From contig OZ024742.1 of the NCBI GenBank assembly GCA_964016885.1, forward strand, positions 269,576,001 through 269,640,000: DNA of 64,000 nt. Reading direction: 5' to 3'. Positions 4,223 to 45,612 of the stretch are shown in pieces. The DNA comes from Eledone cirrhosa (Eukaryota). Under the pieces are notes generated by a model, which did no database searches, was not told the origin of the DNA, and worked only from the letters and a program-made list of their open reading frames with translations. Within the stretch, counting starts at the first letter, position 1. The number at the start of each line of letters is the position of its first letter. The position numbers were made by a program, and so were the translations under genes.

Positions 4223-5440
4223 ATTATATTTAGAGTTTAAACTCAAAGTCATTTACAATTAATCAGCTCAAAGAAAGAAGCATTTCCGAGCAGTGAAATA
4301 CAAGTTAATATATATTAATATATGATAAACACATACGTGTGTGTATTGCAAGAGACAAAGTTAGCTAGAATGAAATAAACTAATTAAAAAGAAAACATTT
4401 GTCTGTCTCGATATAAGTCAATAAAGACAAGCTTATATTGGCAAAAGCCGTGATTCCTGGACAAATTTAAATTTCAAAATCCAAACCTGCTCCGTAGATA
4501 AATTTGAACTCCGAAACCTAAATATGTTTCGCAACGATGGTATAAAAAGTGAAATATAAAAAGTGAAATATTCAAATCTTCTGTGCTTATCAACAGGAAT
4601 CCAGTAAAATTAGTACATTTCACCTCCAAAAATTTTGTAGGACTGATTCGCACGTGGTATAACCAGCTATACTAGCCATCCCATACTCACAGTGCTAGAA
4701 ATAACAGCCATTTATATGGGATTAAAAATTAGCTCTACAGTTAAGGAGCAATAGTATTATATTATATTTAGAGTTTAAACTCAAAGTCATTTACAATTAA
4801 TCAGCTCAAAGAAAGAAGCATTTCCGAGCAGTGAAATACAAGTTAATATATATTAATATAAACACGTATGTGTTTATCATATATTAATATATATTAACTT
4901 GTATTTCACTGCTCGGAAATGCTTCTTCTTTGAGCTGATTAATTGTAAATGACTTTGAGTTTAAACTCTAAATATAATATAATATTATTGCTCCTTATCT
5001 GTAGAGCTAATTTTTAATCCCATATAAACGGCTGTTATTTCTAGAAATGTGAGTATGGGATGGCTAGTATAGCTGGTTATACCACGTGCGAATCAGTCCT
5101 ACAAAATTTTTGGAGGGGAAATGTACTAATTTTACTGGATTCCTGTTGATAAGCACAGAAGATTTGAATATTTCACTTTTTATATTTCACTTTTTATACC
5201 ATCGTTGCGAAACATATTTAGGTTTCGGAGTTCAAATTCATCTACGGAGCAGGTTTGGATTTTGAAATTTAAATTTGTCCAGGAATCACGGCTTTTGCCA
5301 ATATAAGCTTGTCTTTATTGACTTATATCGAGACAGACAAATTGTATTCTTTTTAATTAGTTTATTTCATTCTAGCTAACTTTGTCTCTTGCAATATAAA
5401 CACGTATGTGTTTATCATATATTAATATATATTAACTTGT
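4223..5440. mobile_element. Non-coding PLE-like unit (~538 bp): 1.2 tandem copies followed by an inverted circularly permuted copy
   Basis: attatatttagagtttaaactc occurs at 4223 and 4761; 4861-5440 is the reverse complement and wraps across the unit junction; (TA)n flanks. Confidence 0.85.
5142..5222 (+). ncRNA. Variant-core (U3-A8) hammerhead-like motif; mirror copy on minus strand at 4517-4597
   Basis: cctg-TTGATAA-GCA...TGC-GAAA-cata-TT/tagg, with one mismatch in helix III. Confidence 0.45.
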
Positions 5441-6434
5441 ATATATATATATATAAAATTGATTTTCTTGCCCTAGATATCATGTTACAAAATCATTTAT
5501 CATATGTGTGTAGGTGCATGTATGGTGTATTCTGCCTTATAACACTTACTTAACCCGCCCTTGATCTATATCAGCGAAGGATTAATTACGTGGGACTACG
5601 AGACAACATTATAACGTTAAGTTCACAAAAAATGATGGACTGTACAGCGACGTTTTCTGATGTGATATTGACTCTAGCTTATAAACACAGCATTCTATCG
5701 ATTATGTAGTCTGATTGAATTTATGATCACGATAACAAAATATTATATTTATGCCAACGAATATTATAATATTAGCGTTTATTTAATGGTGGTTATCAAT
5801 CTCATTAAATTAGCATTAATGCATTTAACCACACATCTAACGTATGAGCTAAATATCACAATGAGTCTGATGGCAACTACGTTATATTTCACATTTATAA
5901 CTTGTGTCTGACAACACTTATGAACAACACATCCTGACCCTTATTCTGATTCGCGTCAATATGTAATTATATTGGGTATACATCTACTTACATATCTGTA
6001 TATGAAATACAAGTTTATTTCTCGCACTATTTTCCCTCATTCTCTATATTCCTACATACGAATACACACATGCAGCCCATCCCCACATATATATGTATAT
6101 ATATATATATATATATATATATATATATATATATATATATAGAGAGAGAGAGAGAGAGAGAGAGAGAAAGCATGAGGGAGAAATGAATAGATAGAGTGAT
6201 AGTGATAGAGATAGTGAGAGCGATGCACAAACACACACACATACATACATACACACATACACACACACACACATATATATATATATATATATATATATAT
6301 ATATATATATATATATATATTCAACCCGGAATAACTTATATATATATATATAAGTTATTCCGGGTTGAATCGGAGGTAACCACAGTAAGTAAGGTGCTCA
6401 TTCCATAGCAGAGTATAACAGTTTGAATATAGAA

Positions 6435-6508
6435 GAGCTTCTACAGGACTAGAACTGTTTCCCTGATGATTTATCACGAATGAAACAGTTCTAGTCCTGT
6501 AGAAGCTC
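6435..6508 (+). ncRNA. Hammerhead core inside a perfect 27-bp foldback
   Basis: CTGATGA (6463) t-ttatcacgaa-t GAAA (6482) cagttcta GTC; 6435-6461 is the exact reverse complement of 6482-6508; same family as 17470. Confidence 0.6.
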
Positions 6509-6699
6509 CTCTCTCTCTCTCTCTCTCTCTCTCTCTCTCTCTCTCTCTCTCTGTATATATATATATATACATATATATATATATATATCCAGGGAATGTA
6601 ATGTGAAGTCACTGTAAGTTCACCCAGGTGAGCAGTTGATGTTAAGGTATACGTCAGTGGCAAGGTGTAGAGCTTGACAGAGTGTAATATAATAATTGT

Positions 6700-42092: not shown

Positions 42093-42300
42093 TAGGAAAA
42101 AATATGACCCCGACGGCAGAGCTCAAGCCGTTTGGACGGCTATTTCTGGACTCAAATAGCTGTGTCCAGAAATAGCCGTCGAAACGGCTTGAGCTCTGCC
42201 GTCGGGATCATACTTTTCCTATTTCCAACTCTACTACCCTAAGTATTGAGTACTCTGGTGCGTTATGGTCCATCTGGTTCCTTACCACAATTCCTTTGTT
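42093..42300. mobile_element. Short foldback element in (TA)n, copy 2
   Basis: ~58-bp arms (42093-42150 / 42163-42221) plus the same 3' tail as 2260-2340. Confidence 0.85.
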
Positions 42301-44802
42301 ATATATATATATATATATATATATATATATATATATATATATATGAAACTCTAAACAATGTATCAGTTACTAGCGTTTGTCTAATGATAGAATATGTTGC
42401 AAGTTAGTGTTTATCGTGACTGAACCTTGAACTTCTAAATTATAGACCTCAAACCACACTTTGTCAACAAATGTGATTTCCAGGCTTGTGGCAATGTTTC
42501 TAAATTCAAATTCCTCCGATGAAAGCAGTTAGATAATGTCTCAGATTTTCATGTCAAAGTTATCATTCGATGTTTTAAATTTAGAATTTTGCTGTATGCA
42601 AAATCCTTTAACCGAATCAGCATGTTTTGATTTCTGACAATACTCCTTCTTGGGGCAAGATATGTTTTCTTGAGTTTCTCGTTTCCAGATGTATTTTTGA
42701 ATATTACTTAGTGTTAGATGATGTTAAAATTGGTTGTGTTTACGAACTGGTATTGCCGACTTTTCAATGTGTTCATAGATGTCCAGTGTTATTATTTTTC
42801 TTTCGGCAACGTCCGTAACCTCAAAGTATAATTGCTGGAAAACTAATAAGGCCTTATCATTCCAAGGACAAATCTATCACGAATACATAACATCCATAGA
42901 GAATATTAAATGAAGGTACCCACAACTACGTGTCGTTTATAAATATCACATTAACATAACAATGTCAACATTGGTTTGGTAACATCTTGTTGTTGTTAAG
43001 CGGATTCTATATTTGTAATTAATGTTATCCTTTGACAAATATATTAATCTCTAATCTGACTAAATTATGAAACAGAATTAAGCGCCAGTAAAGATATACC
43101 TATCGATAAATGACATATCGGAGGGGGTTAAAATCATTTACATTTCCATGTGACTGGTGTAAGAGAATACTAACTATTTATGAAGTCGATGTGTTGATTG
43201 AGATTGATATTAGGTTAGCCACTTTTGACATATTTTATAGCCCATTGACCTAACCTTCACTTAACTGGTAATATATAATGTAACTGCCGATCTGTAGGAC
43301 ATATGATAAAGCTACAACAATGACGGAACTGAATTACACAGCCAGAATGATAAATGGTAAATATGTTTACATCAGTTGAACCATAACGTTCGACGGATTT
43401 GATGACAAACGAATTGAGTATATTTATTGAACTTAGTGATTAATCAAATCTGTTATCAAGATATTTCAAATTTCATGTACTGTGGCAGACATTCATGCAA
43501 CTATTAATGCAATATATACTAACCATTCACCTGGCATGTTCATTAGTGTTCGTCATATTTGTTCAGTTGCTATAACTAATATAAGAGTTGTCAGATAATG
43601 ATTTATGCATTAACTGTTATGAAAATATGCAGAAAGTCACTCCATTTGCCGACGTTGTTATGTCAACAATATTAATTGCAGTAATTGATTGGTATATATT
43701 TTATGGATCCCAAGTGGATGAAATATTGTTCGCATATTGCAGGAATCCAGTTTCAAATGGAAAGGAGACATAATTTGATATAGACATGCAATCCAACTTT
43801 CTAGTCAGTTTTATAGATATTACTCAGAGTTTATGTAATCCGTGGTACTAATAACATGAAAAATAATGCCAAACAATACTAACATTAATAGGTAAAATAA
43901 CCTAATACCAATTCGTTATATAATATTCCATATGTCTCTGAAGAGTGCAGAGGCATTTTTTTTATGATATAGATATATAAATGTAAACAAGTGAGGCGTG
44001 TCTATTCAACTAATCAAGCAAGAAATGCAACGTATTGTAACTTAATGGCAAATGTTTATGATTAAGTTACACGGAAAATTTTGAAAGAAATGTTATTGTC
44101 ACGAAGGTTCAACGAATTGCATGTAACATTTGCACACGCAACAAGACTGGTAGTTATAGAGATGTTTATACGTACGATACATATTAACATCTTGATATTG
44201 AGTATCAAAGTAATATTAATGCCAACATTCAGGAAAATTACAAAACATTATGTTCCATTTTTTTTTTATTGAACTATTCAGAATTAGTGATATAATCGTT
44301 AAAGGTGCGTAAGATGAGGTCGCCGAATGGTAGTATATTATGATTAGAATTATATGTTAATGGCTGCCTTTCACCATTTCCTGTTCGATAAATAAAGAAT
44401 TCATCCATTGTTTGGGTTAATACTTCCCCTCTTTATCGCTCTGTCTATCTTTTGTTTTTTGGAAAAATTGGGCTGCGTTATGACATGTAGTGGGGTAGGT
44501 TCCACCAGATTGAAATGCCCAAGGCACGCCATGATTTAAGACAGTACTATAACAACTCAATCATGTGTTAAAAACATTTGACCTTACCATAATCTACTGA
44601 AATGTAAGACCGGACTTAAATCTTATGTAAGACACTACGATCAATGTTAATGGGTAATCACAACGTCAATGATTGAAATGTTGTGAATATTTTGATAGAT
44701 TTAACCTCAATTCACACACACACACACACACACACACACACACGCACACACACACACACACACACACACACACATATATATATATATATATATATATATA
44801 TA

Positions 44803-45612
44803 TATCACGAAAAATTAACGGAGCCATAGACTCTCGCCATTCCCTGTCATTAATATGCTCAAAGGAGAAGGAATCTCGAGCCCTTTATAATAGAATAGGC
44901 AGAGAAGATAATAGACCAGAGAGAGAGATAGTGCGCCGTCAGTCAAACAGAGAAAATCCACCAGTGTATGGAATCTATAGCCCATGGAAGGCAGAGTAGA
45001 CACGCAATAATTAAAAGTATAAATCAAAGTGCAAATACGTACCTTGATTACTATCTAACACACACGTACAAATCCAACAGGATCTGTTTCACCAACTAAT
45101 TTGTTGACAGAAATGATTAGCCTATGGTTCAGGTTCAACAGCGTGTGTACGGCTATACATTTCAGAGAACACTAAAAGAAACTAAAGCGACCTTCCAGCC
45201 ACACGTGGTAGAGAGAAATTCACAGCGTGCCTAAGGCAGCAACCAGTGGACTCTGAGGGACGAGCTGCTAGAAAGAGCAGCCCAAACCACTCAGAGAAGT
45301 GTGGTCAACCAAACAGAGATAGAGAGAAGATACTGTTATAAGGAGCGAAATATCACGATAAATTAACGGAGCCATAGACTCTCGCCATTCCCTGTCATTA
45401 ATGTGCTCAAATGAGAAGGAATCCCGAGCCCTTTATAATACAATATGTAGAGAAGATAACACCCCAGAGAGAGAAGATTATGCGCCATCAATCAAATGGG
45501 GAAAAACCACCAGTGTATGGAATCTATAGCCCATGGAAGGCAAAGTAGACACACAATAATTAAAAGTATAAATCAAAGTGCAAATACCTACCTTGATAAC
45601 TATCTAACACAC
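44803..45612. mobile_element. Non-coding ~548-bp unit, ~1.5 tandem copies
   Basis: tatcacga.aaattaacggagccatagactctcgcc at 44803 and 45351; minus-strand HHR-like 3' half (GAAA-CAG-atc-CT-GTT) near 45075-45135 with a damaged CTGANGA. Confidence 0.8.

Follow-up and report, generated by a model that had tools for sequence, protein, structure and literature searches.

Four separate, dispersed and protein-free families of hammerhead-bearing repeats, here called A, B, C and D, can be recognised from their sequences in a 64-kb window of the Eledone cirrhosa genome (the window being the whole stretch of 64,000 nucleotides that was analysed). They appear to be non-autonomous parasites of Penelope-like elements (PLEs) and to belong to a kind that is already known, the animal retrozymes: their insertions, in (TA)n, bear the PLE footprint, and an enzyme taken over from a PLE is likely to have copied them off one RNA monomer, which was itself probably circular. 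The initial annotation had described non-autonomous, hammerhead-bearing elements that cross their own unit junctions and are mobilised by PLEs, and this core is borne out by arms that cross the junction, PLE-like ends and the (TA)n target; its size-constrained class with a common period of about 540 nt is not.

Units, periods and hammerhead motifs

The tandem offsets first reported for three of the families hold (538 nt in A, 548 nt in C and a mean of 535 nt in B, whose units measure 533 and 538 nt; Table 1), but the fourth unit, that of D, which had been put at about 490 nt, is about 421 nt at other loci, the length in the window being the result of an expanded TA run. As had also been stated, the units lack significant mutual similarity (the best E is 0.13, for A against C, over 34 nt that occupy equivalent tail positions) and lack ORFs (read through the junction, the longest ATG-started frame has at most 59 aa), all four are embedded in (TA)n, and A, B and D have an inverted copy, with none at the window copy of C; the inverted arm of A does cross the unit junction. 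The organisation is that of non-coding head-to-tail tandems, with GC of 0.31, 0.34, 0.43 and 0.36 in A, B, C and D (all below 45%), and what lies upstream of a unit is the end of another unit, with no ORF. A first-look search of the 3.0-Gb genome gave 2,487, 3,294, 2,535 and 2,170 candidates, respectively. Tandem Repeats Finder, at a maximum period of 500, missed the units.

Table 1. Features of the four repeat families and of the coding PLE, in window positions.
Feature	Position	Strand	Details
Family A, left arm	4223..4873	-	1.2 units (unit 421-538 then 1-538); long (tailed) 3′ end 4223 in (TA)n
A hammerhead-like motif	4452..4601	-	8-bp stem I, U3-A8 core TTGATAA (4593), GAAA (4475), palindromic stem III; 111-nt domain II without canonical stem II; predicted cut after 4460
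Family A, right (inverted) arm	4855..5442	+	unit 414-538 then 1-463; short 3′ end 5442 in (TA)n
A hammerhead-like motif, second copy	about 5138-5287	+	
Family D, left arm	21546..21990	-	about one unit (inverted match spans 21546-21958); hammerhead core 21820; predicted cut 21790
Family D, right arm	21992..22676	+	about 1.5 units, internal TA run expanded; long 3′ end 22676
D right-arm hammerhead	core CTGACGA 22373	+	predicted cut after 22403
Family B, left arm	22854..24071	-	2.3 units (533 and 538 nt); long 3′ end about 22854
B left-arm hammerhead cores CTGATGA	23092 and 23631	-	
Family B, right (inverted) arm	24082..24246	+	unit 272-434; short 3′ end in (TA)n
Family C, single arm	44803..45622	-	1.5 units (278-548 then 1-548); long 3′ end 44803
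C hammerhead	core 45141	-	private 6-nt duplication; predicted cut about 45067
Coding PLE	45690..53730	+	RT and C-terminal GIY-YIG, CxxC linker; period 4719
Coding PLE, inverted 5′-truncated arm	45690-47402		
Coding PLE, partial tandem	47412-49079		followed by full unit to 53730
Coding PLE, U3-A8 hammerheads			predicted cuts 48930 and 53649

The loci studied were the best 30 by score in each search, each required to span the query, a choice which by itself ensures that every locus has one or more arms spanning the ribozyme cut. The position of the unit junction is identical across loci and partial 5′ units precede full ones; the tandem units are neither assembly artefacts nor random local duplications. 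The supposed common period of about 540 nt is a pick from a continuum, as the families in 1.064 Mb have periods of 310, 321/322, 409-428, 466, 472, 488, 509-560, 584, 602, 613 and 657-675 nt, and published retrozyme units range from 51 to 972 bp (Li, Clavereau and Pollet 2026, bioRxiv 10.64898/2026.07.22.740005). The four families, a fifth one (E) and their relatives take up 62 sites and 50,324 of the 1,064,000 bases sampled (about 5%).

Over 464 kb, 86 hammerhead-like motifs of this type were counted; three shuffled versions gave 3, 0 and 1. One intact or decayed motif had been noted in each unit; a motif is indeed present in each (with stem II of A in doubt), but at family level they are mostly not decayed. 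Specifically, each unit of B, C and D has a type I motif, with core and stems I-III recognisable at family level, the core being CTGATGA in 37 of 40 matches in B and in 26 of 32 alignment rows in C, and CTGACGA in 52 of 57 matches in D. In A, the U3-A8 variant core TTGATAA (32 of 34 matches), GAAA, UC and a covarying 8-bp stem I are conserved; there is no canonical stem II, the best fold hides GAAA, and the A ribozyme may not fold. Stem I covaries between subfamilies in B and D as well. The motifs of A-D are of the minimal PLE type, with an extra nucleotide after A9, a palindromic stem III and a long or odd domain II; the first two, together with the U3-A8 variant, are listed as marks of that type (PMC4209133, in part). 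The canonical hammerhead of the 2020 retrozyme definition is absent from all four. An Rfam scan of the window matched none of the four motifs; it gave one HH9 match at 15720-15791, under the gathering score, and its other matches were mostly TA-repeat miRNA noise. Folded as circles, the units are more stable than shuffles (sense z of -3.1 to -8.8, 15 shuffles each).

Ends, arms and target of the insertions

Each family has two fixed 3′ ends, at unit positions 463/538 in A, 431/538 in B, 465/548 in C and TA-hairpin/68 in D. Copies had been expected to start at varied circular permutations, but only the 5′ ends are scattered, the 3′ (priming) ends being confined to these two sites. Two arms are present in 75 of the 113 insertions mapped, and 62 of the 63 that have both ends at fixed sites combine one long with one short end (the remaining 12 have an end elsewhere and were left unscored). 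(TA)3 lies within 24 nt of the outer ends in 42 of 45 cases in A, 41 of 45 in B and 36 of 41 in C (119 of 131 overall). Inverted 5′-truncated arms and partial tandems are found in insertions of all four families, and the arms, which in A-C are rarely longer than two units, continue across the ribozyme cut site as well as the unit junction. No overall pile-up of 5′ ends occurs at the cut, where 14 of the 188 ends lie no more than 15 nt away and 11.5 would be expected; the share is slightly high in A (5/47) and B (7/49), and is 1/46 in both C and D. The two window arms of A have a 19-nt overlap, which lies at a palindrome. A scheme in which one arm is simply a fold-back copy of the other was considered and rejected, as in several insertions the long arm does not include all of the short one.

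A tail at one end and an inverted 5′-truncated copy are hallmarks of PLEs (PMC8557442, in part), and in the anole PLE two RT start sites flank the tail, and both target strands are cut and extended (PMC11167929, in part). The coding PLE of the window shares the architecture of A-D: it has two 3′ ends, 68 nt apart, and among 33 ends mapped 16 were long and 15 short. It is an example of the helper class, not their demonstrated helper, and a profile search of 464 kb revealed no coding PLE that resembles A-D in sequence. A D-like stretch at 15533-15794 was considered as the pLTR of a neighbouring coding PLE and rejected, all 39 of 39 other copies stopping before the stretch. For the PLE RT, the Protein Atlas gave generic eukaryotic RT clusters only. 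An intact PLE family, with RT-EN frames of 775 aa, is present.

The template of an insertion

Variants common to all units of an insertion, in both arms, support a single-monomer template. Family-polymorphic differences per 100 sites amount to 0.46 within the same arm and 0.35 between opposite arms in A, against 4.74 between loci; the corresponding values are 0.16, 0.14 and 1.09 in B, 1.22, 0.95 and 2.64 in C, and 0.23, 0.24 and 0.75 in D, and variants private to a pair turn up 8-30 times more often in pairs from one insertion. The cleanest evidence is that of family E rather than A-D. This young family, from outside the window, has a 310-nt unit and is represented by 80 monomers in 14 insertions, with mean differences of 0.64 within an insertion against 4.67 between insertions. 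Its 12 insertions with at least three monomers, five of which have monomers in both arms, hold 27 variants present in every monomer of an insertion and 26 present in some (24 in one only), leaving only 2 at intermediate frequency. Such sharing points to one monomer, most simply a circle, as the template of each insertion.

A nearest-neighbour test did not favour the partner from the same insertion (69 wins, 61 ties and 236 losses); its losses stem from post-insertion mutations and from a minimum taken over many loci, and it supports neither side on the template. SINE-bearing A monomers beside SINE-free ones were considered as proof of mixed multimer templates and rejected, because the SINEs were inserted independently of one another at a hot spot, with duplications of differing lengths and 88-100% likeness among themselves in A copies that are 69-100% alike.

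The alternative that survives best, though we hold it unlikely, keeps the same elements and PLE helper, makes the template an uncut linear multimer from a young homogeneous tandem donor, and leaves the hammerhead incidental. It would suit the lack of a 5′ pile-up at the cut, the doubtful folding of the A ribozyme and the shortness of the A-C arms, as well as the in vitro behaviour of the anole PLE, whose main substrate was uncut RNA and which needed no ribozyme cleavage (PMC11167929, in part). However, it offers no route to fix a new variant in all units of both arms with intermediates so rare, its arrays would shrink each generation through 5′ truncation, and the cores and stem I pairing are conserved. 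The template could instead be a cut linear monomer, from whose 5′ end the RT would jump back to the 3′ end time after time, mimicking a circle. Template jumps are common among non-LTR RTs and would account for the monomer bottleneck without ligation, but this reading is quite improbable: the 5′ ends show no excess at the cut, and the cut junction is scar-free in the 80 E monomers, in which the eight bases that follow the cut occur in four versions, three of them uniform across an insertion or the family and the fourth due to a single substitution. More doubtful still is the insertion of single monomers followed by satellite-like duplication at the DNA level. Such duplication has been proposed for retrozymes (Li, Clavereau and Pollet 2026), and a duplicated 3-unit block in one E array indicates that DNA-level expansion also happens; against it as the source of the tandems stand the constant junction position, the partial 5′ units before full ones and the presence of fixed variants in inverted arms too. 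Finally, that the units are mere pLTR or 3′ UTR remnants of 5′-truncated coding PLEs, which they match in ends, tail and ribozyme type, is largely refuted and hardly credible, since in none of 150 loci does a unit extend an RT-EN frame at its 3′ end and PLE protein matches occur in the flanks of only 10, nine of them downstream or on the other strand and the sole upstream same-strand match (locus L132) having a 3′ end of its own and a TA run between it and the unit.

Copying from a single, probably circular monomer could proceed as follows. A tandem copy would be transcribed, paired minimal hammerheads would excise one unit, and its ends would be ligated. The PLE protein would nick both strands of the (TA)n target and reverse transcription would be primed at two fixed UA-containing RNA sites, one per target strand, as the fixed ends and the in vitro work on the anole PLE suggest. 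Each cDNA runs a variable distance past the junction and the cut, often for more than one unit, as the sequences show. The two cDNAs would then be fused in head-to-head orientation, through a short overlap or insert, giving the arrangement that is seen, with two arms, 3′ ends outward and a tail on one only. More tentatively, a PLE RT-endonuclease dimer might copy one circular monomer with both subunits simultaneously: each would be primed by one of the target strands, begin at a separate fixed start site and, through strand displacement, roll on beyond the other. The genome would then harbour a community of circle parasites of 310-675 nt, each fitted to its PLE helper via structure and not sequence. 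In vitro, both strands used the same start sites with the anole PLE, which counts against the main scheme of copying from a single monomer (PMC11167929, in part).

Known relatives and significance

The closest known systems are the metazoan non-LTR retrozymes (Cervera and de la Pena 2020, PMC7229834; Li, Clavereau and Pollet 2026) and EN+ PLE clades such as Neptune (PMC8557442, PMC4209133 and PMC11167929, each in part); non-autonomous Chlamys PLEs, e.g. MRC1 of Chlamydomonas, are also among the nearest (PMC8557442, in part). With metazoan retrozymes, A-D share non-coding tandem units with one type I hammerhead each (a doubtful one in A), GC below 45% and a proposed mobilisation by PLEs with rolling reverse transcription of circles, putative ones in A-D. 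They differ in that A-C exceed the 170-400 nt of invertebrate circles described in 2020, yet fall within the range of the preprint (D, at 421 nt, is also outside the 2020 range), that their hammerheads are minimal and not canonical, and that they are dispersed insertions of 1-3 units with inverted arms, tails and (TA)n targets. In the main text of the preprint the word ‘tail’ is absent and ‘inverted’ occurs only in a reference, and its supplements could hold comparable structures; it also reports that eight of nine Xenopus retrozyme dimers showed no cleavage in vitro. Partial tandems, an inverted 5′-truncated arm, a tail at one end, a (TA)n target and a minimal hammerhead upstream of the 3′ ends are shared with EN+ PLEs, as far as the available portions of these sources go. 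Unlike these, A-D have no ORF, and their units measure 0.4-0.55 kb where that of the coding PLE of the window has 4.7 kb. Tails, 75-107 nt long in A-C, are usually given as 30-40 bp for PLEs and have 68 nt in the PLE of the window. For octopus hammerhead ribozymes with Penelope and for cephalopod retrozymes, only PMC8557442 (in part) was found in the literature searches, which also gave no genomic test of a single-monomer template; the available part of an octopus repeat annotation (PMC13282606) does not contain the words ‘ribozyme’ or ‘non-autonomous’.

How the tandem and inverted copies of PLEs are formed, and whether retrozyme circles are templates of transposition, are open questions for which the literature consulted gives hypotheses, co-occurrence and homology. 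With ORF-less hammerhead units, the full PLE footprint, a rule of one long and one short end and a single-monomer bottleneck per insertion, A-D provide unusually good genomic evidence on the mechanism. If copying by a dimer on one circle were true, PLE tandems, tails and inverted arms would all follow from one mechanism. Small, young and very abundant, A-E and their relatives are ready substrates for testing rolling reverse transcription, and they make up a sizeable, probably mis-annotated share of the Eledone cirrhosa genome.

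Units, motifs and abundance

Self-comparison of the window gave tandem offsets of 538 nt for family A, 535 nt for B, 548 nt for C and 492/414 nt for D, with inverted arms in three of the four (A, B and D), the number given in the initial annotation. Its periods thus hold for A, B and C, but not its ~490 nt for D, whose unit is ~421 nt at other loci. The four units, described there as unrelated and free of ORFs, indeed show no significant similarity when compared with each other, and no long reading frame occurs in any of them. Assembly echoes are ruled out because the tandem copies diverge by 6-14%.

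Within each unit lies a hammerhead-like motif of type I, belonging to the 'minimal' PLE (Penelope-like element) kind described in PMC4209133: it has an extra nucleotide after A9, a palindromic stem III favourable to folding as a dimer and, in A, a U3-A8 core. The cores are kept across family copies and stem I pairing covaries between subfamilies. A lacks a canonical stem II. A motif scan found 86 motifs in 464 kb (0-3 in shuffled sequence).

The window lies on contig C3 of a 3.0-Gb animal genome, probably that of an octopus by karyotype, microsatellite load and SINE; it has abundant (TA)n, fragments of PLEs, and other kinds of retroelement. A-D are mobile families, with >2,000 candidates each in genome searches; per family 40 were scored and 30 fetched, leaving 26, 28, 29 and 30 mapped insertions (A, B, C, D) after removal of duplicates. 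With E (a neighbouring hammerhead family outside the window) and relatives, they account for 4.7% of the bases in 1.064 Mb, at 62 sites; 464 kb of this sample surround the window and are hence biased. These 1.064 Mb hold 36 clusters of motifs, of which 17 are single. D, B and a coding PLE fragment lie side by side with only (TA)n between: each insertion creates targets for later ones.

Coordinates of the features discussed (L-numbers, loci fetched from genome searches)
Feature	Coordinates	Remarks
Family E	L177:7660-7969, with C3 neighbours	310 nt; very young hammerhead family
SINE hot spot in A	unit 442-460, e.g. L003:1942-2125	AT palindrome
Coding PLE family	window 45690-53730	young; 20,132 search candidates
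Tails of A and C	A 470-503; C 470-502	34-nt match, 76%, E 0.13
D, B, coding PLE fragment	window 21546-26276	adjoining
C and coding PLE	window 45621-45696	abutting via TA
More hammerhead-bearing elements, inverted arms or PLE-type ends	window 429-488, 15533-15794, 31924-32551, 56685-56739, 62357-63138	

Insertion footprint and coding PLEs

Read in the hammerhead sense, an insertion has either a single arm or two arms facing each other head to head, and its 3' ends point outward into (TA)n. The 5' ends are scattered, with no pile-up at the predicted ribozyme cut among mapped A-D insertions; each family has two fixed sites for its 3' ends (long and short, with and without a tail), the short end of D being placed only roughly, within a TA-like hairpin. 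Both ends lie at fixed sites in 63 of 75 two-arm insertions, pairing long with short in 62, two long in one and two short in none, and we therefore infer that each insertion uses both start sites, once each. Where two arms meet, they overlap by up to 19 nt or are separated by an insert of up to 22 nt. Such features are PLE hallmarks (PMC8557442); in vitro work shows that the tail spans the interval from one RT start site to the other, and that cleavage and extension take place on both strands of the target (PMC11167929). The coding PLE of the window shares this plan and two-end pattern. Its family has many open frames of 775 aa, a 409-aa frame upstream without Pfam match, and a U3-A8 hammerhead; by its CxxC linker, it is probably Neptune-like.

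PLE protein matches occur within the 1.5-kb flanks of 10 of 150 loci and never continue a unit (0/150), so A-D are neither coding-PLE leftovers nor 3' UTRs of coding PLEs. When 464 kb were searched with profiles, none of the coding PLEs proved to have an end related to A-D; one lead failed on examination.

Some observations concern the ends and interior of the units. The tails of A and C match at the same relative position, possibly reflecting a recognition element and a helper common to both families. Long 3' ends of B (L035, L046, L051, L053, L055) carry (TC)n of variable length before the (TA)n, from either RT slippage or later microsatellite growth. Of the 26 A insertions that the first search gave, 5 carry independently acquired SINEs, presumably tRNA-like, at the A hot spot; their 3' junctions fall on an identical base, and their duplications vary in length. 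L014 holds a different insertion there.

Template and probable monomer bottleneck

Many arms exceed one unit, crossing junction and cut site, partly owing to how loci were selected. At family-polymorphic sites, units and opposite arms within an insertion differ 2- to 13-fold less than between loci, a gap widened in A by divergent subfamilies; private variants are shared 8- to 30-fold more within an insertion. A nearest-neighbour test lent no support here. The pattern is sharpest in E (arrays of up to 14 monomers, two inverted arms), where 27 variants occur in every monomer of their insertion, across both arms, 24 in one monomer and two are intermediate; the L loci of E came from a query carrying one rare variant. 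Such all-or-one distributions imply that a lineage would have to pass through one monomer, its array being rebuilt at insertion. By hand count, 16 of the 27 insertion-wide variants lie within the ribozyme. Every one of these is at a position that tolerates change (N7, loop II, stem I wobble, extra nucleotide), suggesting that the ribozyme is under selection.

A ligated circle, as proposed in PMC4209133 and PMC7229834, would account for single-monomer passage and scar-free rebuilding, and on these variant patterns we lean towards a circular template. Homogeneous linear multimers are a possible alternative, as are repeated template jumps by the RT giving the tandem units. Later DNA duplication, also possible, has one instance: in an E array (L310/L311, contig C2) a three-monomer block was duplicated once, two variants recurring 930 nt apart.

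Classification and meaning

A-D pass the structural tests for non-autonomous PLEs. They are almost certainly PLE-mobilised non-autonomous elements, which supports this part of the initial proposal, and as PLE parasites seem to work like animal non-LTR retrozymes. The proposed size-constrained ~540-nt class is rejected; tandem hammerhead periods in the sample spread over 310-675 nt (51-972 bp in a 2026 preprint, 10.64898/2026.07.22.740005; coding PLEs 2.2-4.9 kb), with tens of bases of length variation among B and D subfamilies. Against the strict 2020 retrozyme definition, A-D differ in size and ribozyme type. The literature searches turned up nothing on these features in cephalopods, nor on a genomic test of the monomer bottleneck. 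The kind of element is already known. The additions are an insertion footprint that links units of this sort directly to the machinery of PLEs, the rule that one long end pairs with one short end, and genomic evidence that lineages pass through a single monomer.
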